Shown here one piece after another: positions 12,635 to 48,788 of a stretch of DNA of 64,000 nucleotides. The notes under the pieces were generated by a model. That model saw nothing but the letters and a program-made list of their open reading frames with translations, ran no database searches and was not told the DNA's origin. Position 1 is the first letter of the stretch. Every line of letters starts with the position of its first letter. The DNA is taken from positions 142,104 to 206,103 of the forward strand of contig JAXHVD010000003.1 of assembly GCA_034189385.1 (NCBI GenBank), read 5' to 3'. Position numbers and translations under genes: made by a program. Origin of the DNA: Thermodesulfobacteriota bacterium (lineage in GTDB: Bacteria > Desulfobacterota > Desulfobacteria > Desulfobacterales > C00003060).

Positions 12635-12737
12635 GGAAAATATCTGCCCCGCCGGTCAAAGACCCTAGTTGTCGATTGACCTTTGGACCTCTAGGCCTTA
12701 TCTTCCGCAAGTCGACATTCTGTCCCTGGAGGTCCTG

Positions 12738-15224
12738 ATGAACGCATTTGTTCCCCGCAACTACACACTCTCTATCACGCCTGATCTGGCCCATTTCCGG
12801 TTTTCCGGCAGGGTTGAGATATCCGGTGAAGCAACAGCACTGATCGACGAAATCACCCTTCACGCCTTGGAGCTGGATATAATGGCTTGCAAGGCCTGGA
12901 TTGACGGCCGCCTGGTGGACTGCCCGGTCACCCCGCAACCGGAAGACGAGCAGATACGGATCCGTTTGCCGCAGAAGATCACCGGACACATGCGGCTGGA
13001 AATCAGATACGGGGGCGTGATCAACGATCACATGGCCGGGTTTTACCGCAGTCGCTATCAGGTGGCCGGAGAGACCCGTCACGTGGCCGTTACCCAGTTT
13101 CAGGAAAGCGATGCCCGCCGGGCCTTTCCGTGCCAGGATCACCCGGCGAAAAAGGCCACTTTCAATATTGAATTGATCGTGGACGACCACCTTTGTGCAT
13201 TCTCCAACACCACGGAAGAGGAGGTGGTTTCCCTGGGCGACGGAAAAAAGCGGGTCCGCTTCCGGCAGACGCCGCTTATGTCCACGTACCTGCTCTTTTT
13301 TGGGGTCGGCGCATTTGAAACGGTTCGCAGCCCTTCCGATGCTCGGGTGCGGGCGGTCACCATCCCGGGGATGGTCTCTTATGCCGACTACGGCCTGGCC
13401 TTTGGCGCTAATGCGCTTCGATTCTGTGAGGAGTACTTCCGGATTCCCTTCCCTTTGTCCAAGATGGACTTGATCGCTATTCCGGATTTCGCCTTCGGCG
13501 CCATGGAGAATTGGGGGGCCATCACCTTTCGGGAAAACCTGTTGCTCCACGACCCGGACATGACCTCCAGAGCAGGGGAAGAGCGGATCTGCGAAGTGAT
13601 CGCCCACGAGATCGTTCATCAGTGGTTCGGCAACCTGGTAACGCCCTGTGATTGGAAATATCTCTGGCTAAATGAGAGCTTTGCCACCTTTTTCGGCTAC
13701 GGCGTCGTGGATCACTATCATCCAGAGTGGGGAATCTGGGACCAGTTCCTAGGGGGGCAAACCGATACAGCCCTGGCAAGAGATGGCATCCACGAGACCT
13801 TTGCCATCGAGATCCCCGGCAGAGATCATGTGGCCATCAACTCCAGCACCGCCCCCATCATCTACAGCAAAGGGGGGAGCATCCTTCGGCAGGTCAAGGG
13901 CTTCATCGGTGATGAGAGTTTCAGGGATGGACTCCATCACTATCTGAGCCAGCACGCATACAGCAACGCCGCCAGCCATCATCTGTGGGAAGCCCTTGAG
14001 AGGGTTTCTGAAAGGCCCGTTGCGCGCATGATGAAGAGCTGGGTCGAACAGCCCGGATATCCGGTCATCCGGGCACAAAGAGAAGGGCGGCGTCTCTTTC
14101 TGCAACAGGAGCGCTTTACCTATCTGCCGGGTGGGTTCGAGCAGGTGTGGGACGTTCCCGTCAACATTGAACTCTTTGGTCCTGACAGCGAGTCCAGGCT
14201 TGTGAGCACCCTGTTAACGGAATCACAGGGCGAAGTGGCCTTGCCTCAAGAGCCAGTGGCCTACAAGGTCAATGCCGGCCAAACCGGATTTTACCGCTGC
14301 TGGTATTCAAATCGAAGTGATTTGGAGGCCCTGGGAAACCTCATCTGCAAAAAACGCCTGCCGCCGGAAGATCGCTGGGGAGTGGAAAACGACTTCTTTG
14401 CCATGGTTCGCCGGGGCGAGCAGACCGTATTTGACTACATCGACTTCATGAAGCACTTTGAAAATGAGACAGACTATCTGCCCTTGGTCAGCATAGCAGA
14501 CAACCTTTTCAGCGCCTACATGGTAGTAAAAGAGAACCAGCGCGACGCTATCGCTGCAGCAGGCCGGAGACTGTTTGACCGTGCACTGGCACAGATCGGT
14601 CTCGAGCCGCAGCCCGCTGAAAGATTTACTACATCACTCATGCGGGATCATGTTTTGCTACACGCCGTATTCTACGGATCAGAAGAAGCCCTTGCGTTTG
14701 GCCGCAACTGTTTCAAGACCCTGGCTTCCGGGGGAAGCGTTCATCCAGACATCATGAAAAGTGTCATGCAGATCGGTGCCTGGACGGAAAACGAGGCGGC
14801 CCTCCACTGGCTGCAGAACCGCTTTCGGTCCTCTGCCAGCGAGCATGAAAGGATGAACATCCTCGCCGCGCTGGCATGCTGCAATGGGCCGAAGCTGGTA
14901 GACCAGGCCCTGGCCTTTGTGCTGGCAGAGGTTCCAGATCGCAACAGATTCCTCCCGATCGTGGCAGCCTGTGCCAACCCTCAAGCCGTAGAACATATGT
15001 GGCCTTGGTATTGTGACCACGTGCAGCAGTTGGAGCAGTTCCATCCGCTACTCTATGAACGGGTGATGGCGGCGGTCATCCCAACGGCTGGCATCTTTGC
15101 ACCAGATGAGGTCCGGGGATTTTTTCAAGACTACATGGATCAGAGACCTCGAAGCCGTGACGCGATACTCCTGGCCCTGGAAAAGCTGGAGATCAACCTA
15201 AGGTTCAAAGAGCGCAATGGCTGA
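12738..15224 (+). CDS. pepN: M1-family aminopeptidase N
   Basis: GAMEN motif (FGAMENWG) plus HEIVHQWFGNLV...WLNESFA (HEXXH-E). The start is taken at ATG 12738. Confidence 0.9.
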   Translation: MNAFVPRNYTLSITPDLAHFRFSGRVEISGEATALIDEITLHALELDIMACKAWIDGRLVDCPVTPQPEDEQIRIRLPQKITGHMRLEIRYGGVINDHMAGFYRSRYQVAGETRHVAVTQFQESDARRAFPCQDHPAKKATFNIELIVDDHLCAFSNTTEEEVVSLGDGKKRVRFRQTPLMSTYLLFFGVGAFETVRSPSDARVRAVTIPGMVSYADYGLAFGANALRFCEEYFRIPFPLSKMDLIAIPDFAFGAMENWGAITFRENLLLHDPDMTSRAGEERICEVIAHEIVHQWFGNLVTPCDWKYLWLNESFATFFGYGVVDHYHPEWGIWDQFLGGQTDTALARDGIHETFAIEIPGRDHVAINSSTAPIIYSKGGSILRQVKGFIGDESFRDGLHHYLSQHAYSNAASHHLWEALERVSERPVARMMKSWVEQPGYPVIRAQREGRRLFLQQERFTYLPGGFEQVWDVPVNIELFGPDSESRLVSTLLTESQGEVALPQEPVAYKVNAGQTGFYRCWYSNRSDLEALGNLICKKRLPPEDRWGVENDFFAMVRRGEQTVFDYIDFMKHFENETDYLPLVSIADNLFSAYMVVKENQRDAIAAAGRRLFDRALAQIGLEPQPAERFTTSLMRDHVLLHAVFYGSEEALAFGRNCFKTLASGGSVHPDIMKSVMQIGAWTENEAALHWLQNRFRSSASEHERMNILAALACCNGPKLVDQALAFVLAEVPDRNRFLPIVAACANPQAVEHMWPWYCDHVQQLEQFHPLLYERVMAAVIPTAGIFAPDEVRGFFQDYMDQRPRSRDAILLALEKLEINLRFKERNG

Positions 15225-16349: not shown

Positions 16350-16429
16350 CCATGACAGACAAACGACTCGGTATTCATTACCCAAGGCGCTCTCTGCATC
16401 CACACCACGGGTAGGGTACAACACTTCTT

Positions 16430-16470
16430 ATTACTGTATTTCGGCACGAAAAATACAGTCTTCACCCCAT
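16430..16470 (+). promoter_or_regulatory. site A of the 41-bp bipartite motif
   Basis: ATTACT-gtatttcggcacgaa-AAATACAG-tcttc-ACCCCAT. See findings for the other four copies. Confidence 0.55.
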
Positions 16471-16626
16471 TTACATCTGACCCCACAAACCATAATTTTC
16501 AACCTGTACGGTGGTTCACAAAGATAGAAGGGAGGGATGGAAGTACCTGAGTTGGGCATCAACAAGAGGCTTTGATGAAGGTGAATGGACGAGACAAGCA
16601 GTCAACAAACAGAGGAGAAGGGAAAA

Positions 16627-16938
16627 ATGGACGTAAAAGACTATTGTGGTTCTATGAGCACGGAACTGATGGCTTGGAAGGCGAAAATGTACGACATCAC
16701 GCGCAGACTGGACAAATTGGGAAGCGCGGATAAAGAAAAGGTGCTTTCGCAAGTGGAGGACATGCATATCCTTGTGACGGAAATGGGTGACAGAATCGAT
16801 AAGCTCAACCGGGAATGCCCTTCCGAATGGAGCCCGGACAAGAATGCCATCGATAATGCCCATACAGACATGCGTGCCAAATACGAGAGCACCATGGAGT
16901 TCATCGGAAAGGCTGCTCCCGTATCAGTCCCCGGCTAA
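16627..16938 (+). CDS. hypothetical helical protein (about 103 aa)
   Basis: ATG 16627 follows GAGGAGAAGGG. The sequence is MDVKDYCGSMSTELMAWKAKMYDITRRLDKLG...; I recognise no family. The track ORF starts at 16585. Confidence 0.6.
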   Translation: MDVKDYCGSMSTELMAWKAKMYDITRRLDKLGSADKEKVLSQVEDMHILVTEMGDRIDKLNRECPSEWSPDKNAIDNAHTDMRAKYESTMEFIGKAAPVSVPG

Positions 16939-16990: not shown

Positions 16991-17053
16991 ATGAAGATCA
17001 AGAAGATAAGAAAGACTGCCAAAGGTCTGTGCAAGTGCAAGCGTTCCTGCTAG
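16991..17053 (+). CDS. candidate 20-aa basic Cys-rich micro-ORF (MKIKKIRKTAKGLCKCKRSC)
   Basis: AAAGGAGGG lies 10 nt upstream of the ATG. The ORF sits between the 103-aa gene and the terminator at 17152. Confidence 0.3.
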   Translation: MKIKKIRKTAKGLCKCKRSC

Positions 17054-17108: not shown

Positions 17109-17151
17109 AAGACGAGGTGGAAAGATTCTCGGGCCTCGACAAATGAACAGG

Positions 17152-17179
17152 GCGGAGTCCACAGGACTCCGCTTTTTTT
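17152..17179 (+). terminator. rho-independent terminator
   Basis: GCGGAGTCC-aca-GGACTCCGC forms a perfect 9-bp stem followed by TTTTTTT. Confidence 0.8.
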
Positions 17180-17328: not shown

Positions 17329-17736
17329 ATGACCTTGTCCTTTTACCTGAAGTTGTATGTGCTCACGATACCGGTCTTCTTTGCCATCGACATCCTATGG
17401 CTCGGCATAGCAGCCAAAGACTTCTACCAAAAACACCTGGGTTCCCTTTTTCGCCCCAAGGTGGACTGGACCGCCGCCATTGTTTTCTATCTTATCTTTA
17501 TCGTTGGCATTCTGTTCTTCGCTGTTGTGCCGGCATTGGAAAGAGGCGCCTGGACGAGAGCGGTCATCTGGGGGGGGCTCTTTGGTTTCTTTACCTACGC
17601 GACCTATGACCTGACAAACCTTGCCACCTTAAAAGACTGGCCCGTGAAGGTGGTCGTGGTGGACATGATCTGGGGCATCTTCCTCTGCAGTACTGTTTCG
17701 GCCATCAGCTTTCACATCGGCAAATGGCTCGGTTGA
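17329..17736 (+). CDS. DUF2177-family membrane protein
   Basis: 135 aa with 4 TM helices: MTLSFYLKLYVLTIPVFFAIDILWLGIAAKDFY...TYATYDLTNLATLKDWP. Confidence 0.75.
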   Translation: MTLSFYLKLYVLTIPVFFAIDILWLGIAAKDFYQKHLGSLFRPKVDWTAAIVFYLIFIVGILFFAVVPALERGAWTRAVIWGGLFGFFTYATYDLTNLATLKDWPVKVVVVDMIWGIFLCSTVSAISFHIGKWLG

Positions 17737-17835
17737 CGACCCCTGTCTTTGGGGCAAGACGCATCCAGCCCTGCAGATGGTTGTGTGCCTATTCTTTATG
17801 CTTGGGCTATGGATCGTACCCGCTCCTCATGACAC

Positions 17836-19371
17836 ATGGAGAGGATTGTCCAAGGGGCAGACGTCACAGCGGCCATGTTTGCCCTCGGGCTGGGTCAACA
17901 CCGCATCAATAATAACCTTGACTCTCCTACTGGGGAATGGATGACGGCCCATTTGCAACAACGCGAAGCAAATCCCCAAGCCCTCGAACAGCCTGTTTCA
18001 TGGCCCAAAAGGCTGGCTTACGCTGCGCCAGCGTTCGCGCTGGCCGTCGTGGGCATTCCTGTTTACGTCTACATGCCCAAATTCTACATCGATGTAGTGG
18101 GCGTGCACATCACCGTTTTGGGTTATTTGGTCCTGGGCATGCGGGTTTTTGACGCTTTAACGGATCCCGCCATTGGCTTTCTATCGGACCGCACGAAGAC
18201 ACCCTTTGGCAGACGACGCCCCTTTATGGCCTTGGGATCCATCGCCTTGGCCGGGGCCATCTATCTGCTTTTCAACCCTCCCCACGGCTCCCCAACCTTT
18301 GAAACCGTGTGGTTCGGGATTCTCATGTTCGCCCTCTTTCTTTTCTGGACACTAGTGGTGGTCCCCTATGAATCCCTCGGCCCAGAGATCACCTTTGACT
18401 ATCACGAAAGGACAACGCTCTTTAGTCTCAGAGACGGGGCCCTCATTGCTGGCACCCTGGTGGCTGCAAGCTCCCCGGCAGGCATCACCTATCTCTTTGA
18501 TCTGCCAGGTGATGCCGCAGGAGAAAGGGCCAAGTTCTTCTGGATATCCCTTTGTTATGTGCCCCTTGTCATAGGGCTCTGCTGGTGGTGCGTTGTGGCC
18601 ACTCAGGAGATGGAACAAGGGATTCCGAGCCCGTCGTTTCGCCTTGAAAAAGGCATGAAAACCATGGCTCGAAACCGTCCCTTCGTGATCCTCTTGGTAT
18701 CTTACACGGTGAGTGCCTTTGGGAACAACCTGCCGGCCACCTTGATTCTCTTCTACGTGGAATATGTCCTCCAATCACAACAGGCCGATCTGTTTCTGCT
18801 TCTGTACTTTGTTGTTGGAATCCTGTTCCTTCCAGGGTGGATTCAGGTGTCTCACAAAATGGGCAAGAAGAGGGCCTGGATCCTCTCCATGGCCCTCAAT
18901 ACCGGGGCCTTTGTAGGGGTTTTCTTCCTGGGTCCCGGGGACGCTCACCTCTACGGTGTATTGGTGTGCCTCTCCGGTATTGGCTTTGGTGCGACCCTGG
19001 CGCTGCCGTCGGCCATGCAAGCAGACGTGATTGATTACGACGAACTGCTTTCCGGAAAAAGACGCGAGGGCCAGTATGTGGGATTCTGGTCTGTTTCCAA
19101 GAAGCTGGCCGCAGCGCTTGGCGTGGGCGCCGCTCTCGCCATCTTGGGCACGATGGGATATGAACCGGGAACGGAGCAATCGCCCAAAGTGATGCTGTCC
19201 CTTCGGGTACTGTATGCCTTGGTCCCCTCCCTGTGCAATCTGGCAGCCTTGCTCATTGCCTTGGCCTATCCTATCGATTTGCTTGCTCACGAAAAGATCA
19301 AACAGGCGATCGCCGAGAGAAAGTCGGGCCGTCCGGTGATCGATCCTATCAGGGAGAAACAATTGCCATGA
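17836..19371 (+). CDS. MFS transporter, GPH (MelB/YihO-like) family
   Basis: 12-TM profile with FDALTDPAIGFLSDRTKTPFGRRRPF. The start may instead be ATG 17941. Confidence 0.8.
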   Translation: MERIVQGADVTAAMFALGLGQHRINNNLDSPTGEWMTAHLQQREANPQALEQPVSWPKRLAYAAPAFALAVVGIPVYVYMPKFYIDVVGVHITVLGYLVLGMRVFDALTDPAIGFLSDRTKTPFGRRRPFMALGSIALAGAIYLLFNPPHGSPTFETVWFGILMFALFLFWTLVVVPYESLGPEITFDYHERTTLFSLRDGALIAGTLVAASSPAGITYLFDLPGDAAGERAKFFWISLCYVPLVIGLCWWCVVATQEMEQGIPSPSFRLEKGMKTMARNRPFVILLVSYTVSAFGNNLPATLILFYVEYVLQSQQADLFLLLYFVVGILFLPGWIQVSHKMGKKRAWILSMALNTGAFVGVFFLGPGDAHLYGVLVCLSGIGFGATLALPSAMQADVIDYDELLSGKRREGQYVGFWSVSKKLAAALGVGAALAILGTMGYEPGTEQSPKVMLSLRVLYALVPSLCNLAALLIALAYPIDLLAHEKIKQAIAERKSGRPVIDPIREKQLP

Positions 19372-20159
19372 ATCTGACGACACTTCTCTTGATAACGAAC
19401 CTGACAGCGGCACTGGCCTACATGGCCTGCCTCTGGCCCGTGAGTCTCCTAAAAAAGGATGCGAGTATTGCAGACATTTTCTGGGGCCTCGGATTTGTGA
19501 TGATCGCCTGGCTGAGTTTTTTTCTGACGGATGGATATGTGGTGAGGAAAATGCTCATCGTCTCCCTTACGAGCATCTGGGGAATCCGCCTGTTTCTCCA
19601 CATATTGCTGCGAAACAAGGGAAAAGGGGAAGACCCCCGTTATGTGGCCATGCGAAAAAGCCGCGGCAAGAAGTTCTGGTGGGTCAGCCTGTTCACCGTT
19701 TTTCTCTTGCAAGGTTTCCTACTCTGGGTCGTCTCCATGCCCCTTCAGCTCGGTCAGTTGGCCCCCCTTCCCGCGGCATTCACGTGGCTGGATGGGCTCG
19801 GCCTCTTCATTTGGACGGTGGGATTCACCTTCGAAGCGGTCGGCGACTGGCAACTCGCTCGGTTTCTAAAGAACCCTGAAAACCGGGGATCTGTGATGAA
19901 TAGAGGTCTTTGGGCTTACAGCAGACACCCCAACTATTTTGGCGAATCATTGATCTGGTGGGGTGTATACGTCATCGCCTTAGCTGCGCCTGGAACCTTT
20001 TGGGGCATCATTGGTCCGGCAACCATCACGTTCCTTTTGTTGAAAGTATCGGGCGTGCCCATGCTTGAGGAAACCCTTCGGGAGCAGCCTGAATACAGGG
20101 CCTACATAGAGAAAACGAGCGCCTTCTTCCCCTGGTTTCCACGCAAAGACAAACCATGA
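19368..20159 (+). CDS. DUF1295 (steroid-5-alpha-reductase/ICMT-like) membrane protein
   Basis: Starts at an ATGA overlap with the MFS stop. Contains YSRHPNYFGESLIWWG. Confidence 0.8.
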   Translation: MNLTTLLLITNLTAALAYMACLWPVSLLKKDASIADIFWGLGFVMIAWLSFFLTDGYVVRKMLIVSLTSIWGIRLFLHILLRNKGKGEDPRYVAMRKSRGKKFWWVSLFTVFLLQGFLLWVVSMPLQLGQLAPLPAAFTWLDGLGLFIWTVGFTFEAVGDWQLARFLKNPENRGSVMNRGLWAYSRHPNYFGESLIWWGVYVIALAAPGTFWGIIGPATITFLLLKVSGVPMLEETLREQPEYRAYIEKTSAFFPWFPRKDKP

Positions 20160-20356
20160 AACATCTCATCGAATGGGCGGAGAAGGGGCTTCTGCCCGTT
20201 GGACACTGTGCCGTGGCCTCAACGGTGGCGCATCTTTTTCATGGCCTGCGCCGAGCCGTGGGGGTTTGAAAAGGGTCAGCCATGGCTGGTGTCCCATTAT
20301 CGGCTCCGCAAGGGATAGACAGGGCATCTAAAAGCGCCTCTGTAAAATCGGGAGGC

Positions 20357-21676
20357 TCATGTGCTTTTTCCGGAAGAAGGAGGCAGTTCGGGCAAAATGG
20401 GCGTGCTGCGACAAAACGGCTTTGCCATAAGCATTTGCACATTGCCCAGATAGCGTTCTTCAAATCCCCCTTCGCAGTAACAAAGGTAATACTCCCACAG
20501 CCGGATAAAGGTATCAGAGTAGCCCAAGGCACGGACCTGTTCGATATTTTCAAAGAAGCGCTGCCGCCATGCCCGCAGCGTTTTCGCATAGTGGGGGGTT
20601 AAATCCTCCAAGTGAACGACGCGCAGATCCGTGGAGCGCGCCACAGCCAGGCACATGGCGGTAAGGGACGGAATGCAGCTGCCAGGGAAGATATAGCGTT
20701 TGACGAAATCAACGGATCGCTTGTGCTGATCGTATACGGCATCTGCGATGGTGATGGCCTGAAGAAGCATCATGCCGTCTCTTTTCAAGAGCCTGCTGCA
20801 ACACTGAAAAAAGGTCTCCAGAAATTGATGGCCAACCGCTTCGATCATCTCAATGGAAACCACTTTGTCATAGAGGCCCTCCAGATCGCGATAGTCTTTC
20901 AAAAGGAGGGTGACCCGGTCGCCCAATCCCTCGCCGTCAATGTATTCTTTGGCCCATTCGAATTGGGCGGGGGAAATGGTGGTGGTGGTGACCCGACAGC
21001 CGTAATGCTGGGCCGCATGCATGGCAAACCCGCCCCATCCGGTGCCGATCTCCAGGACATGATCAGAGGATTGTAGATCCAGTTTCAGGCAAATGCGGTC
21101 ATATTTGGCCACGGAGGCCTCTCTGAGGGTGGACGCCTCCGTTTCGAAAATCCCGCACGAATAGGTCATGGTATCATCCAAAAAGAGCTGGTAGAAATCG
21201 TTTCCCAGGTCGTAGTGTGCCACGATATTGGCCCTGCTCCCTGCCCTTGTATTTTTGTTGAGCCAGTGAAACCACTGATGTATGGGCTCCATGAACCGTC
21301 CCCATCCGCTATCCATCTTCTCAAAGATGTGGCGGTTTAGAACCATGATCCGTATGACCATGGTCAAGTCATCGGCGGACCAGTCGCCAGCCATGTAAGC
21401 CTCAGCCGCTCCGATGCTGCCGCCCCATAGGGCCCTTCGGTAAAAACGGGGGTGGTGGATCGTCACGACCGCACGAAGGGGAAAATCTTCTGAAGCCTTT
21501 CCAAAGGCAAGGCGCTCGCCATTATCCTCCAGGAGAAGCTCACCAATGTCCACATCCTCCAATAGGGCCATCACCATCCTTTTGGCCAGGCGATTCAGAG
21601 GCCCCCGGACTAAGGCATGAGGTGGAGCCGTTCTGTCCGTCTCCGCGGGAATGATGGATGTTCTCATGATGTTCAT
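20357..21676 (-). CDS. cyclopropane-fatty-acyl-phospholipid synthase family SAM methyltransferase
   Basis: Contains AHYDLGNDFY, the SAM site VLEIGTGWGGFA, and YLCYCEGGFEERYLGNVQM. Confidence 0.9.
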   Translation of the reverse strand: MNIMRTSIIPAETDRTAPPHALVRGPLNRLAKRMVMALLEDVDIGELLLEDNGERLAFGKASEDFPLRAVVTIHHPRFYRRALWGGSIGAAEAYMAGDWSADDLTMVIRIMVLNRHIFEKMDSGWGRFMEPIHQWFHWLNKNTRAGSRANIVAHYDLGNDFYQLFLDDTMTYSCGIFETEASTLREASVAKYDRICLKLDLQSSDHVLEIGTGWGGFAMHAAQHYGCRVTTTTISPAQFEWAKEYIDGEGLGDRVTLLLKDYRDLEGLYDKVVSIEMIEAVGHQFLETFFQCCSRLLKRDGMMLLQAITIADAVYDQHKRSVDFVKRYIFPGSCIPSLTAMCLAVARSTDLRVVHLEDLTPHYAKTLRAWRQRFFENIEQVRALGYSDTFIRLWEYYLCYCEGGFEERYLGNVQMLMAKPFCRSTPILPELPPSSGKST

Positions 21677-22446
21677 GCCTCCTTGCCAGACAGTCGCTTG
21701 GCAGGATGCGTGTAAACCGGGGCCCCTTTCCACTTGAGGCGAAGGGCCTGCCAGTATATCATGGCCACGACCTTCAATGTCATGGGGGGGTAGGACAGCA
21801 ACACCCGTGCGAGGTTGTTGCTATTCAGCTCGCGCCGCTCCAAAGAGAGGGTGGCGTCAAAAAGCTTCTGCCTGACATCATGGAGGTTGAAATGAACCCG
21901 AATCTTCTGGTCCGGCTCCCGAAACCGCCAGTCATAATGCATCGCCATATCCATGAAAGGCGAAACGTGGAAACTTTTCACAAACCGAAACTGCTTCCAT
22001 CCCTTCAGGCCATGTTCATTCGCGGATTCTCCTAAGACATAGCAATGTTCCTCACCCCATGGGGTGTTATGGACTTCAGCGACAATCGTCTCCACCTTAT
22101 TCCCGGACCCATCGTAACAGTAGTAAAAGCTCACAGGATTGAAGTTATGCCCAAAATACCTTAGGTGGGTCAGCAACCGAATGGGCCCGGAAGGACGCCC
22201 TCCGAGCTCCTCCTCCACAAGATCCCTTACCGCACGATCTAAGGGAAGGCGCGGGTCCCCCAAATGGTCCCTCCGACGGAAATAGGCTAGATTGGGTGTG
22301 CCCACAGACCAGAACAGACGGCCATCAAAAACCCCGTCCAGTTCCGAAAGGTCCAGGTACACCATGAACAGCCTGTACCAAAAGGCGTTGGTCACCGGCC
22401 GGAAACGACGGTGGCGAACATGACCCTCGTAGATGCAGCTCACCAT
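21673..22446 (-). CDS. DUF1365 protein
   Basis: MVSCIYEGHVRHRRFRPVTNAFWYRLFMVYLDLSEL is a typical DUF1365 N-terminus. It has 4-nt overlaps with both neighbours. Confidence 0.85.
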   Translation of the reverse strand: MVSCIYEGHVRHRRFRPVTNAFWYRLFMVYLDLSELDGVFDGRLFWSVGTPNLAYFRRRDHLGDPRLPLDRAVRDLVEEELGGRPSGPIRLLTHLRYFGHNFNPVSFYYCYDGSGNKVETIVAEVHNTPWGEEHCYVLGESANEHGLKGWKQFRFVKSFHVSPFMDMAMHYDWRFREPDQKIRVHFNLHDVRQKLFDATLSLERRELNSNNLARVLLSYPPMTLKVVAMIYWQALRLKWKGAPVYTHPAKRLSGKEA

Positions 22447-22448
22447 GG

Positions 22449-23693
22449 CTAGAGCGTCTTTCCAAATGGCCGGCACACGGCAAGGGCGCTCTTCACACCG
22501 TCCTCGTGGAAGCCAAAACCCCAATAGGCCCCGCAAAAAGAGGTGCGATTGACGCCGTTGATCTCCTCATGACCCTCCTGCGCCTTCAGGCTCTGAGGAG
22601 TGTACACCGGATGATGATAGACCATCTGGTCAATCACACGTGCGGGGTCGATTCCCCCTGGATAATTAAGCGATACACAAAACTCCACAGGGGCTTTCAG
22701 ACTTTGCAGGATACTCATGTCGTAGGTGACCGCCACCCTGCCGGTGTGGGCCTTTGGCACATGGTAGTTCCAGCTCGCCCAGCACTCCCTCTTCTTGGGC
22801 AGTAACGTCTCATCGGTGTGAAGAACGGTCACGTTCTCCTGATAGGGCATGGCGCTGAGAATGCGGGCCTCTTCTTCTGAAGGGTCGGCCAGCAACGCCA
22901 GGGCCTGGTCACTGTGGGTGGCCATGACCACGTGATCAAAATGCTCGGGACCACCCCCCCCATGGACTACCTCCACGCGGTCTTCATGACGCGTTACTCT
23001 TTTTACCGCACAGGAAAGGCGGATGCGGTCTCGAAACCCCCTGGTGAGCTCATGAACATAATTCCTGGACCCGCCCCTTATGACGAGCCACTGGGGTTGA
23101 TCGGTCACGTTCAAAAACCCGTGGTTGTCAAAAAACCGGACAAAGAAACGGGCCGGAAAGTTCCAGAATTGATCAGGATCCGCAGACCAGATGGCCGCCC
23201 CCATGGGGATGATAAAGTCATGTATAAAGGCTTGGGAGTATCCCTCGGCCTTCAGATAGTCTCCCAAAGCCCTGTCATCTCCTCTCTCTCCAAGGATTTT
23301 TTTAGACCGCCTTCTAAAGCGGAAAATGTCCAATACCATCCGGTAGAAGGCAGGCCGAAAGAGATTCTTCCTCTGGGCGAAAAGGCTATTCAATGAACTG
23401 GGGCTATACTCCAAGCCACTTGTTTCCGACGTGACGCTGAAACTCATCTTAGACGGCTGCCAGGCAACAGCTAAGCGCTTCAAGAGTTTCAGGAAATTTG
23501 GATAGGTCTTTTCATTGAAAACGATAAAACCGGTGTCCACGGCATAGGTTTTACCGGCCTTCTCCACATCCACGGTGTGCGTGTGGCCGCCCACATAGTC
23601 GTTGGCCTCAAAGACGGTGATCTCATGGTCCTCACAAAGAAGATAGGCGCACACCAATCCCGATATCCCTGAACCGATAATGGCAATCTTCAT
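22449..23693 (-). CDS. NAD(P)/FAD-dependent oxidoreductase (amine-oxidase-like)
   Basis: MKIAIIGSGISGLVCAYLL...VFEANDYVGGHTHT is a dinucleotide-binding fold. Confidence 0.85.
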   Translation of the reverse strand: MKIAIIGSGISGLVCAYLLCEDHEITVFEANDYVGGHTHTVDVEKAGKTYAVDTGFIVFNEKTYPNFLKLLKRLAVAWQPSKMSFSVTSETSGLEYSPSSLNSLFAQRKNLFRPAFYRMVLDIFRFRRRSKKILGERGDDRALGDYLKAEGYSQAFIHDFIIPMGAAIWSADPDQFWNFPARFFVRFFDNHGFLNVTDQPQWLVIRGGSRNYVHELTRGFRDRIRLSCAVKRVTRHEDRVEVVHGGGGPEHFDHVVMATHSDQALALLADPSEEEARILSAMPYQENVTVLHTDETLLPKKRECWASWNYHVPKAHTGRVAVTYDMSILQSLKAPVEFCVSLNYPGGIDPARVIDQMVYHHPVYTPQSLKAQEGHEEINGVNRTSFCGAYWGFGFHEDGVKSALAVCRPFGKTL

Positions 23694-23735
23694 CTCTGAC
23701 TACCAAAAAGCGCTGTGGGTAGAACCATCCCTTTA

Positions 23736-24732
23736 TTATCCCGTCCCCTCTTTAACACCAGGGGCTAGGGCAGGCTTGTATATGTGGTCAGGCACCGGCC
23801 TCAGGTCCCAAACCATGCCAAGAAAGGCCATGAGCCGGAGCAGATAGTACGTGATGTCGATCTCCCACCCAAAAAAAACCCTGACGGGCCGAAATGGCAT
23901 AATGGTGATGGTTGTTGTGCCATCCCTCGCCCAAGGTGATAAGTGCCAGAAGGGCGTTGTCGCGACTTGTGTCCGGGGTGTCGTATCGTCTGTTGCCGAT
24001 CATATGATCCAGCGAGTTGATCGTAAAGGTTCCGTGGAACAGGGCCACAGTAGAAATCAGAAAACCCCAGACAAACATCTGCGCACCGTCTGTATTTAGC
24101 TGCGGTTGGGTCTCTGCCATCATCTCACCCAGCGCAAAGAGGGATAGGGCCAGAATAAACGGAATCACGGTGTCAAACCGGTTGATCCAGACCAGCTCTG
24201 GAAACTTGAACCAGTCTTTCACATAGCGTTTTCTCGTGGGAAAATTTCGCCTGGAGGTTATCCAGCCCACGTGGCTCCACCAAAAGCCGTGCAGAGAAGG
24301 GGAATGAATGTCTGCCTCTTGGTCGGCAAACCGGTGGTGGTGGCGATGATGGGCCGCCCACCAGAGCGGCTCCCGCTGAACAGAGGCGTTTCCGGCCACC
24401 GCAAAGAGGAATTGCCAGAAGCGGTTGGTCTTAAAGGCACGATGGGAGAAATACCGGTGGTAGAATCCCGTGATGGCAAACATGCGTAACACATATAGCG
24501 CCAATGCCACCCCCACTGCAGTCCAGCTCCATCCCACCACAAATACCAAGAGGCAAGATAGGTGCAGAAGTGCGAATGGGGCCACCCGCAACCAGTCTAT
24601 ACCGGAAGCACGTTCATCCTCTGTGGCCCCTGCACCTGCTTCAGAGTCGAACCATCGGACAATCGAAAGTAGGGCATCTGAGTGACTCGTCTTCTCTCTT
24701 CGTTTTGCCTGCCTGTTCATTTTACATTTCAA
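23736..24732 (-). pseudogene. membrane delta-9-type fatty acid desaturase with an apparent 1-nt insertion near the 3' end
   Basis: His boxes HRYFSH, HHRHHH and HNNHHH are present. The track ORF ends aberrantly (..QGFFWVGDRHHVLSAP..). Removing one G in tgggtggg (about 23866-23873) restores ..GFFWWEIDITYYLLRLMAFLGMVWDLRPVP.., with the stop at 23736-23738. Confidence 0.8.
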
Positions 24733-24777
24733 TAGACATATTTCGCAATAAGCGTAGCACTTGAACGGAAAAAATGA

Positions 24778-24818
24778 ATAGGGTCTTATGTGTATTTAGG
24801 TGTCAAGAAGACCGTAAT
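24778..24818 (-). promoter_or_regulatory. site F of the 41-bp bipartite motif
   Basis: Minus strand: ATTACG-gtcttcttgacacct-AAATACAC-ataag-ACCCTAT, 46 nt upstream of the desaturase start codon. Confidence 0.5.
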
Positions 24819-24938
24819 TTTTTTGCTTGGAATGGCCGAAAAAATGGCATATTGATAGCTGAAGCGGCTGCCTTTGTTAAATAAGGGAGGACCCGAAGGC
24901 TGAAACAGTCCGGTAATCGAAAACGCTTCATTTGCTGG

Positions 24939-25367
24939 ATGATAGGGATCTCTTTTATCCTGACGTTAGTGCAGTGTTCGGGAATCAGAAGTGACATGAT
25001 AGGTATCCTTGACGGAAGGTTTAGCCCCTGTCCTGAATCGCCCAATTGCGTTTCTTCTCAAAGCGACGATCCATCACACTTCATTGAGCCCCTGGACTAT
25101 GAAGGTTCATTGATGGCGTCTCGACAACATCTTCTAGACATCTTGAAGTCCATGCGTGGCGCAGAAGTGATCACTGAGACAGAAACCTACATCCACGCCA
25201 CCTTTACGTCCCGCATCTTCCGGTTTGTAGACGATGTGGAATTCTATTTTGTTCAGGATGTCCCCGTCATCCATGTGCGATCGGCTTCTCGGGTGGGCTA
25301 TTCCGATCTGGGGGTGAATCGGAAAAGGGTTGAGAAAATCCGCAAAGCTTTTAGATCGTTAACGTGA
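24939..25367 (+). CDS. DUF1499 lipoprotein (copy 1)
   Basis: Contains the lipobox LTLVQC, SPCPESPNCVSSQSDD, and VDDVEFYF...IHVRSASRVGYSDLGVNRKRVE. Confidence 0.8.
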   Translation: MIGISFILTLVQCSGIRSDMIGILDGRFSPCPESPNCVSSQSDDPSHFIEPLDYEGSLMASRQHLLDILKSMRGAEVITETETYIHATFTSRIFRFVDDVEFYFVQDVPVIHVRSASRVGYSDLGVNRKRVEKIRKAFRSLT

Positions 25368-25408
25368 CCTTTCCCCGTTCTCTCATCGCCATCCCACCTG
25401 CCTGTTTG

Positions 25409-26677
25409 TCAGACGCCCAAATCATGTATGACGGCCTCGGCGGCCTTCCCTCCGGAATAGAGCGCCCATTGAATGGACGGGACATTCTGGTATTCTCCAC
25501 ACACGTAGACACCCTTCCTGACACGAGGATCGACTCCCAGCGGATCAGGTGTGGGGGGGCTTTGTAGGGGCAGGCCGTGGGCGATGTAAAAGGTCTTCAA
25601 CAGCCGCCAGATACGGGTTCTCTCTCCATACCAACGGGCCAGCTCTTCTCTTACATCTCTTTCAAGGGACTCTGCGTCTTCCACCGAGGCGTGGAGCACC
25701 GTCACCACGATCAAAGACTGCCCGCGCGGCGCATAGGAGGGGGCCACATTGCTCACAACGCTCAAGTTGTTGATAAGACCGTCCCCGTCTCCATTGATCA
25801 CCAGGAGCTTATCCCGAAGGGGAGGTTCTGAAGCGGCAAAATAGAGACAATGGACCCCGCATGACGGCCCTAAGACACCTGTCTGGAGCAGTCTGCTGGC
25901 CTGCGGGCCATTCGTAGCCACGACAACACCCCGACAGGGGATGCTTGGCCCCCCCTCAAGCTTGACCCAGCCTTCGCCCACGGCATCAACGACGGTGCCA
26001 ACGCGAATAGACCCTTCAGGGATGTCTGCTGCCAACTGGGACGGAATGGCGGCCATGCCTTTTGCAGGCAGTGCTGCATCTCCGAGGGCCAGTATCTTGA
26101 AGACGAATTCAAAAACCCGGCTCGATGCGGAAATGTTCGGGTCCAGGCATACGCCGCTGAAAAAAGGCCTGAAAAAGGTCTCTATCATTCTATCCGAAAA
26201 ACCCTCTTTTCTAAGATAGTCCAGGGTCGGCATCTCGGCACGGCAAAAAAGGACCCGCTCGTCCAGCCGCCGTATGCGGTTGACCAGCCGAACAAGGCGC
26301 CATTTGTCTCCCGGGGTTCCCACAGGCGATAGGAGCGTGTCCAAGGCGTACCGCGGGCATCTGAGAGGGTCTGCCACACGATAGAACCTTTTTCTGAAAC
26401 GGATCACTGCTCCCGAGTCAAAGGCCCGGAGCCTCAACAGGGGGTAGTTGAGGGTCTTTTTGGCTTCCGAGTAGGCCCTCTGCAACACCTGAAAACCGTG
26501 GTCCAGGACAAAACCGTCTACCCGGTCTGTCTTCAGTCGCCCCCCAATTCTGTCACAAGCTTCCAGCACGGTAACCGAAAACCCTTCTTTGGAAAGCCTC
26601 CTGGCGCAGGCCAATCCCGCGAGCCCCGCACCGACCACAATCACATCATTGGCCAGTCTGGATTTCCTTGCCTCCAT
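25409..26677 (-). CDS. NAD(P)/FAD-dependent oxidoreductase (amine oxidase/phytoene-desaturase-like)
   Basis: Contains DVIVVGAGLAGLACARRLSKEGFSVTVLEACDRIGGR. Confidence 0.8.
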   Translation of the reverse strand: MEARKSRLANDVIVVGAGLAGLACARRLSKEGFSVTVLEACDRIGGRLKTDRVDGFVLDHGFQVLQRAYSEAKKTLNYPLLRLRAFDSGAVIRFRKRFYRVADPLRCPRYALDTLLSPVGTPGDKWRLVRLVNRIRRLDERVLFCRAEMPTLDYLRKEGFSDRMIETFFRPFFSGVCLDPNISASSRVFEFVFKILALGDAALPAKGMAAIPSQLAADIPEGSIRVGTVVDAVGEGWVKLEGGPSIPCRGVVVATNGPQASRLLQTGVLGPSCGVHCLYFAASEPPLRDKLLVINGDGDGLINNLSVVSNVAPSYAPRGQSLIVVTVLHASVEDAESLERDVREELARWYGERTRIWRLLKTFYIAHGLPLQSPPTPDPLGVDPRVRKGVYVCGEYQNVPSIQWALYSGGKAAEAVIHDLGV

Positions 26678-26713
26678 GTCTGCCTACCTTTCCTGTTTGA
26701 ATGCAGTTCATAA

Positions 26714-26754
26714 AATACCCTATTGATCATAAACAAATACACACTTTACCCCAT
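26714..26754 (+). promoter_or_regulatory. site D of the 41-bp bipartite motif
   Basis: AATACC-ctattgatcataaac-AAATACAC-acttt-ACCCCAT, 84 nt upstream of the Sec-peroxiredoxin start. Confidence 0.5.
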
Positions 26755-26837
26755 TGTGGCCACACAAATTCCATGATTTGAAGGAGAGGGAAATCTCGCA
26801 TGGCCGGTGACCTTCCGGTGATAGAGAGGGGGGTGAG

Positions 26838-27356
26838 ATGAACAGATTCATACCGTTTATCAGCATACTACTCATGGCAATCACACCGTCTTTGGCATTG
26901 GGCCTCCATATCGGTGACACGGCCCCTGTATTCCAAGCCAGCTCTACAGAGGGAACAATCCGTCTCGTCGACTACCTGGGCAAGAAAAACGTCGTCCTGG
27001 CACTCTATTTTGCGGCTTTTACGTCTGTCTGAACGGACGAGCTGATCGCTTTCCAGCGGGATCTGGAAAAATTCGAGCACGAAGATGCTATCATTTTGGG
27101 CGTAAGCAAAGATAGTATGAAAACAAGCAAACGGTTTGCCAAGGAATACGGGATCGGTTTTCCTTTGATATCAGATAGCGACAAGAAAATCAGACGACTC
27201 TATGGAGGAGGGCGCGTTACCTATCTCATCGACAAGAACGGCGTGATCAGATTCATTCAAAAGGGGGTCCCTGACAACAACCTGTTCCTGAAGGAATTGA
27301 AGAGACTACGTGACGCCAACATGGCCATTCAAGAAGGGGGCAGCACAACAGATTGA
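26838..27356 (+). CDS. exported Bcp/PrxQ-type peroxiredoxin with selenocysteine at the peroxidatic position (in-frame TGA 27030-27032)
   Basis: ORFs 26838..27032 and 27096..27356 are in one frame. The joined context is VVLALYFAAFTSV-U-TDELIAFQRDLEKF, compared with the FTPGCTxE peroxiredoxin active site. The N-terminus has a signal peptide. Confidence 0.8.
27044..27063 (+). promoter_or_regulatory. weak SECIS-like hairpin after the peroxiredoxin UGA
   Basis: gatcgct-ttcc-agcgggatc forms a stem with a GG bulge, starting 12 nt after the UGA. Confidence 0.3.
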
Positions 27357-27434: not shown

Positions 27435-27761
27435 ATGGAAGACGCCACTATCATACGCGTTTCTGCGCAAGAGGCAAAAGAGATGGTTGAGGCAGAATCA
27501 GGTCTGCTGGTCTGTGCCTATGATGACGAAGACAAATTCAAGCGAAATCATCTATCAGGCGCGATATCGCTTGCCGAATTCAGATCAAGACTCACATCCA
27601 TCCCCCGAGACCGAGAAATCGTCTTCTACTGTGCCTGACCCAAAGAAGCGAGTGCTGCCGGGCGCGCAGTGGAATACTTGAAGATGGGCTACGACAATGT
27701 GAAGGTCTTGGGTGGCGGTGTCACGGGCTGGAAAGAGGCGGGATATCCCATTGAGGATTAA
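27435..27761 (+). CDS. single-domain rhodanese with selenocysteine in the active-site loop (in-frame TGA 27636-27638)
   Basis: The ORF ends at ..EIVFYCA-TGA. The same frame continues PKEASAAGRAVEYLKMGYDNVKVLGGGVTGWKEAGYPIED-TAA (27759-27761), which is the conserved rhodanese C-terminal half. ATG 27435 follows AGGGAGGTG. Confidence 0.75.
27653..27671 (+). promoter_or_regulatory. SECIS-like hairpin after the rhodanese UGA
   Basis: tgctgc-cgggcgc-gcagtg forms a 6-bp stem (including G-U pairs) with a GG-containing loop, 15 nt after the UGA. Confidence 0.4.
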
Positions 27762-28944: not shown

Positions 28945-28955
28945 TCAAAGGCCAA

Positions 28956-28996
28956 ATTACTCCCTTTTTCAGTGCAAAATACAGTTTTTACCCCAT
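28956..28996 (+). promoter_or_regulatory. site B of the 41-bp bipartite motif
   Basis: ATTACT-ccctttttcagtgca-AAATACAG-ttttt-ACCCCAT, 97 nt upstream of ATG 29093. Confidence 0.5.
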
Positions 28997-29092
28997 ATGC
29001 CACCCCGGAGGTTCGTGCCATGCTCTCCCATGAGACGAAGTCTTAGATAGCAGGAAAAAAATTCCATACGATTGCCATGAGGAGGTGCTAAG

Positions 29093-29473
29093 ATGAATCT
29101 GAAAGACTACTTTGAACAGGCTAAAGGACTCGGGGCGCTTGCTACGGCAGATTCAGAGGGAAAGGTGGATGTGGCTGTCTATTCCCGGCCCCACGTGATG
29201 GATTCTGAGACCGTGGCCTTTGTTATGCGAGATCGCCTGACCCATCATAACCTCCAGTCCAACCCCCATGCCGCTTATCTCTTCAAGGAAGCGGGGGAAA
29301 AATACGTTGGAAAGCGGCTTTTCTTAACCAAGATTCGCGAAGAGCAGGATACTGATTTGGCTTACGAACTCAGGAGAAGAAAATACCCCGACGACAAAAA
29401 AGAACCGCTCTTCCTGGTCTTTTTTCGTATTGACCAGATCCTGCCGCTTGTGGGTCCCGGAGACGGTGAGTAG
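29093..29473 (+). CDS. pyridoxamine 5'-phosphate oxidase-like (split-barrel flavin-binding) protein
   Basis: 126 aa with LGALATADSEGKVDVAVYSRP...HHNLQSNPHAAYLF. Confidence 0.75.
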   Translation: MNLKDYFEQAKGLGALATADSEGKVDVAVYSRPHVMDSETVAFVMRDRLTHHNLQSNPHAAYLFKEAGEKYVGKRLFLTKIREEQDTDLAYELRRRKYPDDKKEPLFLVFFRIDQILPLVGPGDGE

Positions 29474-29483
29474 GAGGCCATCA

Positions 29484-29945
29484 TTGGGGCAGCGTTTCAG
29501 AGTCTTCTTTCACTTCCTGGCGTTGTCCCTCATGTTGTCAAACTGCTCAGCAACTAAACCAGATGATTTGGGATGTACTGACGGCAGGCTATCTCCTTGT
29601 CCAGATTCACCGAATTGCGTCTCTTCGCAGAGTTCAGACAAGGCCCACTATATAGAGCCTCTTACCTATAGGGGAACGTTGACAGAGGCCAGGAAGGCCC
29701 TAGTGTCGGTGATTGCTCGATGGCCTCACAGTGAGATAGTCCAGGCGACGGATGACTATGTCCGTGCGGAGTTCACCTCCAGGTTCTTTGGTTTTGTCGA
29801 TGACGTTGAGTTTTGCATGGATGATGATCTGAACATGATTCATGTCCGATCGTCATCACGCGTGGGCTATTTTGATTTTGGGGTAAACAGAAAAAGGATT
29901 GAGCGCCTTCGAGCCAAGTTTGCGGCACCGAGAACAGAGGATTGA
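29484..29945 (+). CDS. DUF1499 lipoprotein (copy 2)
   Basis: TTG 29484 lies 5 nt after AGGAGG. Contains the lipobox LMLSNC, SPCPDSPNCVSSQSSD and VDDVEFCM..IHVRSSSRVGYFDFGVNRKRIE. It is a paralogue of 24939..25367. Confidence 0.8.
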   Translation: MGQRFRVFFHFLALSLMLSNCSATKPDDLGCTDGRLSPCPDSPNCVSSQSSDKAHYIEPLTYRGTLTEARKALVSVIARWPHSEIVQATDDYVRAEFTSRFFGFVDDVEFCMDDDLNMIHVRSSSRVGYFDFGVNRKRIERLRAKFAAPRTED

Positions 29946-29948
29946 GAC

Positions 29949-30665
29949 ATGGCCAGAAAACCAAGTTACGAAGCGCTGCAACAGCGTGTCAAGGAATTGG
30001 AAAAGGAAGCCGGTGAGCGCCTTCGCATGGAGCGGGAGTTGCTCAAGCTCTCCCACGCGGTGAATCATAGTCCCAGTGCCATCATGATCACAGATGCTCA
30101 TGGGATCATCGAATATGTGAATCCGAAATTCGTGGACATGACCGGTTTTACCGCCCAAGAAGTCCTGGGAAAGAATGCCGGGGATTTGGGTGAACAATCG
30201 GCTGAAGAAGAGGAGAAGATGTGGCAGGTCCTTAAGTCGGGCGGCGAGTGGCGAGGTGAATTTCTGAACAAAAAGAAAGATGGCAAACGTTACTGGGAAC
30301 GGGCGTCCATTTCATCCATGAAGGACCCCGACGGTGGGATTACCCATTACGTAAAGGTGGCTGAAGACATCACGGACCTCAAACGCGCACAACAGGAGTT
30401 AAGAGAGAGCCAGGAGGCGTTATATGAACATCAAAAGCGTCTAGGGATATTGAAATTCGCCAATGACATGGCCCTCCGGCTCATGCATGAGTTGCGAAAT
30501 CCACTGGTATCGATTGGTGGCTTTTCTAAAAGGATTGCCGATGGTCACTATGGGGAAGATAACTTGACCAAATACACGAAAATCATATTCGAAGAGGCCA
30601 AGAAACTCGACCAGGCCGTCAGTGAGTTGCTTGTGCAACTAGAGACTACTGCCCACAAGGCATAG
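29949..30665 (+). CDS. PAS sensor fused to a HisKA/DHp domain, no ATPase domain
   Basis: A PAS S-box (SPSAIMITDAHGIIEYVNPKFVDMTGFTAQEVLGKN...) is followed by the H-box MHELRNPLVSIGG. The protein ends 50 aa later. Confidence 0.8.
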   Translation: MARKPSYEALQQRVKELEKEAGERLRMERELLKLSHAVNHSPSAIMITDAHGIIEYVNPKFVDMTGFTAQEVLGKNAGDLGEQSAEEEEKMWQVLKSGGEWRGEFLNKKKDGKRYWERASISSMKDPDGGITHYVKVAEDITDLKRAQQELRESQEALYEHQKRLGILKFANDMALRLMHELRNPLVSIGGFSKRIADGHYGEDNLTKYTKIIFEEAKKLDQAVSELLVQLETTAHKA

Positions 30666-43411: not shown

Positions 43412-43516
43412 TGTCAGAAACCCCCGTCTTTCTCCTAAGGCCATGTAGAATAGGCTGAAAGGTGGACCTTGAAGAAGGGAACGTTTTTTCTGCTGCTTTT
43501 GGATTTCAGCTTTTCT

Positions 43517-46753: not shown

Positions 46754-46873
46754 GGATTACTCCCTGTTAACGCGCTGTTGCCCAAATCGCTTTTCGCTTT
46801 GGCTAAAACCTTTTTTGACAAATCTAAAGCTCACTCCAGGCGATGTCAAAACTCGCCCTTTTGGCTCTGCAAC

Positions 46874-48775: not shown

Positions 48776-48788
48776 CGCCTGAAACCCC

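Follow-up and report, generated by a model that had tools for sequence, protein, structure and literature searches.

A putative furan-fatty-acid-type gene island with two broken accessory genes in an apparently anaerobic Thermodesulfobacteriota bacterium

Furan fatty acids are potent scavengers of radicals and singlet oxygen. To our knowledge, their biosynthesis has been established in two alphaproteobacteria only, under sigmaE-ChrR control. Here we describe a gene island at positions 17329-26677 of a 64,000-nucleotide stretch (hereafter the window, meaning the stretch as a whole) of a 221-kb contig from an NCBI metagenome-assembled genome (MAG) labelled Thermodesulfobacteriota bacterium. Its core is a triad of adjacent genes encoding a methylase of the cyclopropane-fatty-acid (CFA) synthase family (CMAS1), a DUF1365 protein and a flavin-adenine-dinucleotide (FAD) enzyme (FAD1). 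With a probability of roughly 0.6, we read the island as encoding an O2-dependent, furan-fatty-acid-type membrane antioxidant pathway within a neighbourhood of O2 and light stress genes; we infer its chemical steps, product and regulation from homology and synteny.

In Rhodobacter sphaeroides, UfaM (RSP2144), a CFA-family S-adenosylmethionine (SAM) methylase, converts cis-vaccenate in phospholipids to 11Me-12t-18:1; UfaD (RSP1091), which has an NAD/FAD domain as in phytoene desaturases, makes 11Me-10t,12t-18:2; and UfaO (RSP1090), which carries DUF1365, uses O2-derived oxygen to form the furan ring (Lemke et al. 2020, PMC7380195). The UfaD product was detected in aerobically grown cells only, and in Rhodopseudomonas palustris the corresponding genes RPA2571 (D), RPA2570 (O) and RPA2569 (M) sit side by side and suffice (PMC7380195). 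Halomonas likewise has the three genes in a row, and in Escherichia coli its in-cluster methylase yields 11-methyl-12-octadecenoate (PMC12089945). An earlier, sequence-only reading of the window had taken UfaD as an amine-oxidase-type, UfaO as a DUF1365 and UfaM as a CFA-family protein; the family statements of Lemke et al. show these assignments to be correct, and the origin of the ring oxygen bears out its remark that furan formation needs O2.

The island consists of two convergent operons and two genes that are transcribed separately (DUF1499 and FAD2); family assignments were made with Pfam. The minus-strand operon holds, in order of transcription, a membrane desaturase, FAD1 (22449-23693; Amino_oxidase, 1.4e-24, plus NAD_binding_8; MDY6837004.1), the DUF1365 protein (21673-22446; PF07103, 6.4e-85, full length; MDY6837003.1) and CMAS1 (20357-21676; CMAS, 8.6e-86), the DUF1365 stop codon being overlapped by the CMAS1 start (ATGA). 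FAD1 is of the amine-oxidase/phytoene-desaturase type and belongs to the UfaD family, the DUF1365 protein to the UfaO family, and CMAS1 is the positional equivalent of ufaM. These are the families of R. palustris ufaD-ufaO-ufaM in the same FAD-DUF1365-CMAS order, apparently in one operon. Unlike the R. palustris genes, those of the window are accompanied by an upstream stearoyl-CoA-type desaturase (broken), by FAD2 and DUF1499, and by a convergent DUF2177-MFS-DUF1295 operon that ends in the remnant of a second methylase (CMAS2), and the host is an apparent anaerobe.

The plus-strand operon opens with a DUF2177 membrane protein (17329-17736; PF09945, 2.7e-50; MDY6836999.1), followed by a GPH-type MFS_2 transporter (17836-19371; 1.4e-91) and a DUF1295 membrane protein (19368-20159; PF06966, 1.3e-74; MDY6837001.1). 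The transporter coordinates are those of the longest open reading frame (ORF), and the true start is probably M36 at 17941; its stop codon is overlapped by the DUF1295 start (ATGA). Weak Steroid_dh, ICMT and PEMT matches mark the DUF1295 protein as kin to the steroid-5-alpha-reductase, ICMT and PEMT families. The two remaining genes are a DUF1499 protein with a lipoprotein-like N-terminus (24939-25367, plus strand; PF07386, 5.9e-43; called by NCBI as 123 residues, MDY6837005.1), which has a paralogue, about 50% identical, within 29430-29945, and FAD2, a second flavoprotein of the amine-oxidase family (25409-26677, minus strand; Amino_oxidase, 9.3e-41, full length; MDY6837006.1), which solved structures match at the N-terminal FAD-binding motif only. 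All nine families that the sequence-only reading had described as clustered were thus recovered in place; the desaturase among them is frameshifted, however, and a tenth gene, the CMAS2 remnant, had been missed.

The core sigmaE regulon of R. sphaeroides comprises rpoE-chrR, RSP1091-1087 and the photolyase gene RSP2143, paired with ufaM (RSP2144) (PMC3546557, PMC7380195). The window shares its photo-oxidative stress theme and, within about 18 kb, the FAD enzyme, DUF1365, the CFA-family methylase and photolyase-family genes. It differs in that the methylase lies in the same operon as the other two core genes, whereas ufaM is unlinked to ufaD and ufaO in R. sphaeroides, and in that a motif of about 44 bp precedes the operon in place of a detected extracytoplasmic-function (ECF) sigma factor or ChrR.

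Co-occurrence of these families with a sigmaE-ChrR pair, which the sequence-only reading had described, was found on three alphaproteobacterial plasmids: Shinella pShin-02 (sigma-70, ChrR, DUF1295, a CMAS2-type methylase, DUF2177, DUF1365 and a divergent FAD enzyme), Paracoccus pPZ02 (sigma, anti-sigma, FAD, DUF1365, CFA-family, MFS and SDR) and a Qingshengfaniella plasmid (sigma, ChrR, FAD, DUF1365, MFS and DUF2177). Identities of the plasmid-borne proteins to the island were 38-45% for the FAD enzyme, 29-36% for DUF1365, 39% for the CFA-family protein against CMAS1 and 35% for DUF1295, and the Shinella methylase was 47% identical to CMAS2. The accessory DUF2177 protein was 40-42% identical to those of the ChrR-linked Shinella and Qingshengfaniella clusters, and the MFS protein 27-28% identical, over about 400 residues, to those of the ufa-like Paracoccus and Qingshengfaniella clusters. 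Unlike the window, the plasmid clusters adjoin sigma-70/ChrR genes, and they are without the stearoyl-CoA-type desaturase, FAD2 and DUF1499.

The highest identities among annotated examples were those of a Klebsiella cluster (MerR, NTF2, SDR, FAD, DUF1365, CFA-family, DUF2878 and DUF3833), at 49% for the FAD enzyme, 45% for DUF1365 and 47% for the CFA-family protein. Clusters of this enterobacterial/Vibrio type, which are induced by blue light in Vibrio cholerae (PMC5241685), differ from the window in their other accessory genes and in their regulators, MerR and ChrR. The families of the island also occur in plants and algae, as Arabidopsis AtUFAMD1, AtUFAO1 and LIME1/AtFUFM1 (PMC10940516) and in Chlamydomonas, where singlet oxygen jointly induces CFA1, the CNMT-like CFA2, DUF1365, DUF2177 and DUF1295 in a SAK1-dependent manner (PMC4067076). 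The accessory families are thereby linked to this same response. These counterparts differ from the island in being eukaryotic and unlinked, and plants carry the FAD and methylase portions as a fusion. The island is a variant of the known ufa system and not new in kind. What is new, relative to the published ufa descriptions that we compared, is the stearoyl-CoA-type desaturase beside the triad, the Desulfobacterota-type accessory set, the motif in place of sigmaE-ChrR and the inactivation, in this strain specifically, of two accessory genes.

We judged the likeness of the island proteins to the Ufa proteins by family, synteny and proxies (29-49% identity), and not by alignment to UfaM, UfaD, UfaO or FufM themselves; NCBIfam holds no Ufa models. 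CMAS1 fell below the NCBIfam cutoffs both for the cyclopropane synthase equivalog NF008686 (286.8 bits, cutoff 400) and for NF053839 (272.9, cutoff 600), and it was alike in its identity to E. coli Cfa (35%), TmpB and BfaB (33-36%). Being equally distant from these three and below the cyclopropane synthase cutoffs, CMAS1, which was closer to the in-cluster CFA-family proteins of Klebsiella and Paracoccus, therefore appears to be a member of the in-cluster, ufa-type methylase subfamily. For FAD1, the closest solved structure was LkcE (1.6e-38), NCBIfam gave weak CrtI/CrtD/HpnE matches, and identity to in-cluster FAD enzymes was 45-49% (Shinella, Klebsiella) or 38-40% (Rhodobacterales).

The DUF1365 protein has more than 8,000 homologues, the closest 84% identical. 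Its AlphaFold model (pLDDT 79.6) consists of a beta-barrel with a long C-terminal helix, and a Foldseek search of the PDB returned weak beta-barrel matches, namely nitrobindin (4e-3), an FABP-like protein and lipocalins. Five divergent members share the invariant residues H12, H160, D32, D60, D112 and E132 but no invariant cysteine, and a 2025 preprint places DUF1365 among hypothetical haem-binding families. We take the weak fold matches, the haem-family listing and H12/H160 as possible leads to a cofactor and nothing more.

Related loci were collected by means of the DUF1365 protein (52-68% identity) from species-representative genomes (80 loci) and from metagenome contigs (two), and the island proteins were mapped onto all 82. 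FAD1, DUF1365 and CMAS1 are adjacent and collinear in 80 of them, and the remaining two loci are cut by contig ends. The accessory genes are less constant: DUF1295 is present in 56/82 and CMAS2 in 55/82, a desaturase adjoins FAD1 in 39/82, a photolyase homologue lies within 10 kb in 13/82, and DUF2177 (8/82), MFS (5/82) and FAD2 (5/82) occur mainly in Desulfobacterota relatives. The hosts belong to Desulfobacterota, Nitrospirota, Gammaproteobacteria, Planctomycetota, Acidobacteriota, Gemmatimonadota and other phyla, and many are aerobes. The clustering of the island genes is not a matter of chance, and the triad is strongly conserved across many non-phototrophic lineages, including nominally anaerobic ones. 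Apart from this, five loci (L005, L026, L029, L034 and L068), several of them in MFD-series MAGs, carry FAD1 or CMAS2 in two or three in-frame pieces, which look like assembly indel errors and not biology.

Comparison with two close relatives, L001 and L002, gave ratios of nonsynonymous to synonymous substitution rates (dN/dS) of 0.08-0.19 for the intact genes: 0.12 for DUF2177 (versus L001), 0.10-0.15 for MFS_2, 0.08-0.11 for DUF1295, about 0.10 for CMAS1 and for DUF1365, and 0.16-0.20 for FAD2. The genes that remain intact are under purifying selection.

One prediction of our reading is that acyl chains of existing membrane phospholipids would be remodelled into methylated furan-type fatty acids able to scavenge radicals and singlet oxygen. 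CMAS1 would first methylate a cis-monoenoic chain with SAM, and a methyl-branched trans-monoene would result without any need for O2; the UfaD-type FAD1 would then desaturate this product to a conjugated methyl-diene, and the UfaO-type DUF1365 protein would insert an oxygen atom from O2, whereupon the furan ring would close. In the relatives, cis double bonds would come from the upstream stearoyl-CoA-type desaturase whenever O2 is available, and a second methyl group from CMAS2. The DUF1295, DUF2177, MFS_2, FAD2 and DUF1499 genes recur with this module. If such products are made, they would amount to a lipid-based O2 defence in sulfate-reducer-type bacteria at oxic-anoxic and at illuminated interfaces, and sedimentary furan or mid-chain methyl lipid biomarkers might derive from them.

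The host is known from the metagenome only and is of the sulfate-reducer type. Its housekeeping LeuB (MDY6836994.1) clusters with those of Desulfobacterales and "Deltaproteobacteria" MAGs. A row of consecutive minus-strand genes (39716-48949) encodes an FrhB/FdhB-like protein, a molybdopterin oxidoreductase, an HdrA-like flavoprotein with 4Fe-4S domains, a 2Fe-2S/4Fe-4S flavoprotein and a NuoF-like protein, and looks like an electron-bifurcating formate dehydrogenase or an Hdr-type complex of anaerobes. Together with the selenoprotein candidates described below and the LeuB grouping, these genes support the description of the host as an apparent anaerobe, oxygen respiration being still possible as judged from 64 kb. 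The sequence-only reading had called a furan-lipid island unexpected in such a host. The host does look anaerobic, but the surprise is softened by the photolyases and the peroxiredoxin nearby and by the presence of the island in MAGs of Desulfobaccales, Desulfobacterales, Desulfococcaceae, Desulfocapsa, Desulfatibacillum, Geobacteraceae and Desulfuromonadales. In addition, a passage of PMC6222795 citing White et al. 2005 gives furan fatty acids as biomarkers of Dehalococcoides, a strict anaerobe. The combination of a putative furan-lipid island with an apparent anaerobe is therefore notable but not unprecedented.

Several points weigh against a furan-type pathway. The host looks anaerobic, yet two of the three core steps require O2. 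The product of a CFA-family enzyme, be it a cyclopropane, methylene or methyl-ene chain, is not readable from its sequence. The link to UfaM, UfaD, UfaO and FufM is one of family, synteny and proxies and not of direct comparison, and with the nearest Rhodobacterales DUF1365 proxies only 29-30% identical, functional equivalence of this subfamily is assumed. Finally, this strain has already lost the function of two island genes, and loss of the whole island could be under way.

The triad might instead make another modified lipid, possibly without O2 in this host, which we regard as unlikely. In one version, a methyl-branched monoene or conjugated diene would be the end product, with FAD1 passing its electrons to quinone in a CrtI-type-like manner; in another, the product would be a cyclopropane or cyclopropene fatty acid, in analogy to the plant fusions of an FAD domain with a CFA synthase. 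Such a product would suit the anaerobic context of the host and the low identity (29-36%) of the DUF1365 protein to its alphaproteobacterial proxies. Moreover, the plant protein AT3G23510, which joins UfaD-like and UfaM-like parts, is classed as a cyclopropane synthase (PMC10940516), the methyl esters of the diene and the esters of cyclopropene acids share a mass spectrum, and neither a cofactor nor a reductant is established for UfaO (Lemke et al., PMC7380195). On the other hand, all three experimentally tested clusters, those of R. sphaeroides, R. palustris and Halomonas, give the methyl-ene/furan series, and the neighbours of the island are oxidative- and light-damage genes. In addition, the strictly O2-dependent stearoyl-CoA-type desaturase adjoins FAD1 in 39 of the 82 loci, or about half, and is intact in most Desulfobacterota copies of the island, which argues that the module works when O2 is present.

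In the window itself, the desaturase gene (23736-24720, minus strand) is broken. Alignment with the closest relatives revealed that a homopolymer (T8 at 23871-23878) is longer by a single T, which causes a +1 frameshift. As a consequence, the ORF at 23788-24732 (FA_desaturase, 5.3e-16) ends in unrelated sequence, the shifted frame running to a stop at 23788, and the conserved C-terminus (WEIDITYYLLRLMAFLGMVWDLRPVP) lies in another frame. NCBI assigns no protein accession to the gene, FAD1 being MDY6837004 and the next protein, DUF1499, MDY6837005. An independent Logan assembly of SRR24907504 was 100% identical over 3,062 bp, T8 included, which makes an assembler artefact unlikely as the cause; a systematic read error at the T8 homopolymer could alternatively have produced the frameshift. 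The repaired protein matched SCD1 (4ymk) at 1e-29 and contained the three His boxes HRYFSH, HHRHHH and HNNHHH, so the "delta-9-type" label of the sequence-only reading was justified. The gene thus retains its His boxes and its SCD1 homology but lacks an intact reading frame. Its dN/dS of 0.078 versus L001, computed on the repaired frame, indicates that the lesion is recent. The L002 desaturase carries an independent truncation ahead of the third His box, and its dN is about twice that of its neighbours.

The second lesion affects CMAS2, of which about the first 15 and the last 37 codons are left (20156-20312, plus strand), about 890 bp of the interior being deleted. A tblastn search of the window with the L001 protein found no more than residues 306-342 and an N-terminal stretch, and blastn against another relative, L086, showed positions 1957-2846 of the latter to be missing from the window. 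The intact protein, a CMAS-family member of 343 residues that is about 26% identical to CMAS1, follows DUF1295 in L001, L002 and L086. The best solved relative of L001 CMAS2 was the plant coclaurine N-methyltransferase 6gkv (1.1e-71), which is of the class of LIME1, and Arabidopsis LIME1/AtFUFM1 is reported to be 38% identical to R. palustris FufM (PMC10940516). The CMAS2 of the relatives is therefore probably FufM-type, as judged from this similarity; what the window holds of a FufM-type second methylase is the deletion remnant only. As a separate observation, CMAS2 stands almost always beside DUF1295 (in about 55 of the 82 loci; in L001 at 12161-13980), and a methylase so paired with a reductase-like membrane protein is reminiscent of BfaB/BfaA and TmpB/TmpA. 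With the desaturase and CMAS2 both inactivated, the predicted product in this strain is no more than a monomethyl furan lipid. The two strain-specific lesions also provide a natural experiment on the dispensability of the accessory genes.

These lesions, the T8 frameshift and the deletion of about 890 bp, could also mean that the island is a horizontally acquired relic, now decaying and without contribution in this anaerobic strain. The independent truncation and raised dN of the L002 desaturase would agree with decay, and the spread of DUF1365 relatives (52-68% identity) over many phyla suggests transfer. We consider this improbable all the same. The other eight genes are full length and under the constraint given above, the close relatives L001, L086 and L085 (the latter covered in part) are intact, and the operon overlaps and upstream motif are kept. 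Furthermore, the lesions are confined to accessory genes, which many functional-looking clusters lack.

In a further alternative, the methylase and a flavoprotein of the island would make saturated mid-chain methyl-branched fatty acids, with no requirement for O2, in the manner of the bfaAB or tmpBA systems: 10-methyl-16:0, a Desulfobacter biomarker typical of Desulfobacteraceae, is formed by the CFA-like TmpB and the flavoprotein TmpA, which is geranylgeranyl-reductase-like and of a different flavoprotein family from BfaA (PMC7791843). Like the island, bfaAB and tmpBA combine a CFA-family methylase acting on phospholipid monoenes with a flavoprotein, and CMAS1 is as similar to TmpB as to E. 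coli Cfa. We rejected this route for the island, as it is essentially excluded by the lack of resemblance of either flavoprotein to the reductases: FAD1 and FAD2 belong to the Amino_oxidase family and gave no BLAST match at E<1e-3 to Mycobacterium smegmatis BfaA or Desulfobacter postgatei TmpA, DUF1365 has no place in the bfa/tmp pathways, whose product is a saturated methyl branch, and CMAS1 groups with the in-cluster ufa-type genes.

The sequence-only reading had noted that no ECF sigma/anti-sigma pair was present, and indeed neither an ECF sigma factor nor ChrR was detected in the 64 kb by phmmer with E. coli RpoE and the Shinella sigma factor and ChrR, or by an iterated ECF profile. Among the 80 loci from species-representative genomes, an ECF sigma factor was found in 6 and ChrR in 1. 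The "41-bp motif" that the sequence-only reading had placed upstream of the genes proved real and measures about 44 bp, with the consensus AAAnTACTGTnTT-N9-AAATACAnnCTTnACCCCATT. It follows the pattern AAAnTACnGT...AAATACA...ACCCnAT, that is, two AAATAC-type repeats 23 bp apart and then ACCCCAT.

Five copies were found in the window, 46-157 nt upstream of stress-type genes. The copy at 24777-24820 (minus strand) lies 46-58 nt upstream of the desaturase-FAD1-DUF1365-CMAS1 operon; it scored 29.8 bits with a position weight matrix built without it, whereas no score above 13.4 was reached when the window was shuffled 30 times. The other four, all on the plus strand, are found upstream of a conserved 103-residue protein (16428-16471), in the divergent region between FAD2 and a peroxiredoxin gene (26712-26755), upstream of an operon of PNPOx-like, DUF1499, PAS-HisKA and LigB genes (28954-28997) and upstream of a Usp gene at 56236-56685 (56046-56089). 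The motif is also present in L002 (3119-3178 and 1136-1195), where a homologous copy stands directly upstream of the desaturase, and in L001 (6157-6216 and 6348-6407), in the promoter region of the FAD2-desaturase operon. In a scan of the window that included weaker copies, neither the DUF2177 operon nor that of the photolyases had one upstream, and no DNA-binding protein gene was recognised near the motif copies.

As far as gene content and motif positions allow, expression of the island is probably not under sigmaE-ChrR but controlled through the motif, so that the triad can apparently be wired to another regulator. Since the motif is shared with the peroxiredoxin, Usp and other genes, the island may be part of an O2 and light stress response in an otherwise anaerobic life. 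It is possible, although we hold this tentatively, that the island forms the lipid branch of a so far undescribed, motif-defined O2/light stress regulon of anaerobic Desulfobacterota that replaces sigmaE-ChrR. The motif would then co-control furan lipids, the selenocysteine peroxiredoxin, Usp and the PNPOx/DUF1499/PAS-HisKA/LigB operon; the methylated lipid would be made in anoxia and the furan only upon O2 intrusion, the membrane thereby acting as an O2-triggered defence.

The genes around the island are in keeping with a theme of oxidative and light damage. The AhpC/TSA peroxiredoxin gene (26838-27356, plus strand; AhpC-TSA, 1.9e-28 with the TGA read as Cys) contains an in-frame TGA at 27030-27032, at the position of the peroxidatic cysteine (FTSV-U-TDEL), with a 7-bp hairpin about 20 nt downstream. 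Both features are kept in L002, and the gene therefore probably encodes a selenocysteine peroxiredoxin. A second selenoprotein candidate follows, a rhodanese-domain protein (27435-27761, plus strand) with an in-frame TGA in its active-site loop (VFYCA-U-PKEASAAGR). On the minus strand, a class II-type DNA photolyase gene (31573-32970) and a gene for DPRP, a photolyase-related, FeS-BCP-like protein (32974-34527), lie side by side, 5-8 kb from the island, an arrangement that echoes the photolyase-ufaM pair of R. sphaeroides.

The PAS-HisKA protein (29949-30665, plus strand) has 238 residues and is without an ATPase domain. In L001 too it stands beside the island, in an operon with the PNPOx-like, second DUF1499 and LigB-family genes. 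We considered a LOV blue-light sensor and rejected it, as the protein has no NCRFL-type cysteine motif.

Searches with Rfam and ARAGORN gave no match to structured RNAs or tRNAs in the window. The 103-residue protein (16627-16938, plus strand) is without a Pfam match and occurs twice in L001 and once in L086, where the region of this gene and its motif is conserved. It is followed by a Lys/Cys-rich ORF of 20 codons (MKIKKIRKTAKGLCKCKRSC; 16991-17053, plus strand) with a good ribosome-binding site, and a terminator-like hairpin (17149-17175) lies between the 103-residue gene and DUF2177.

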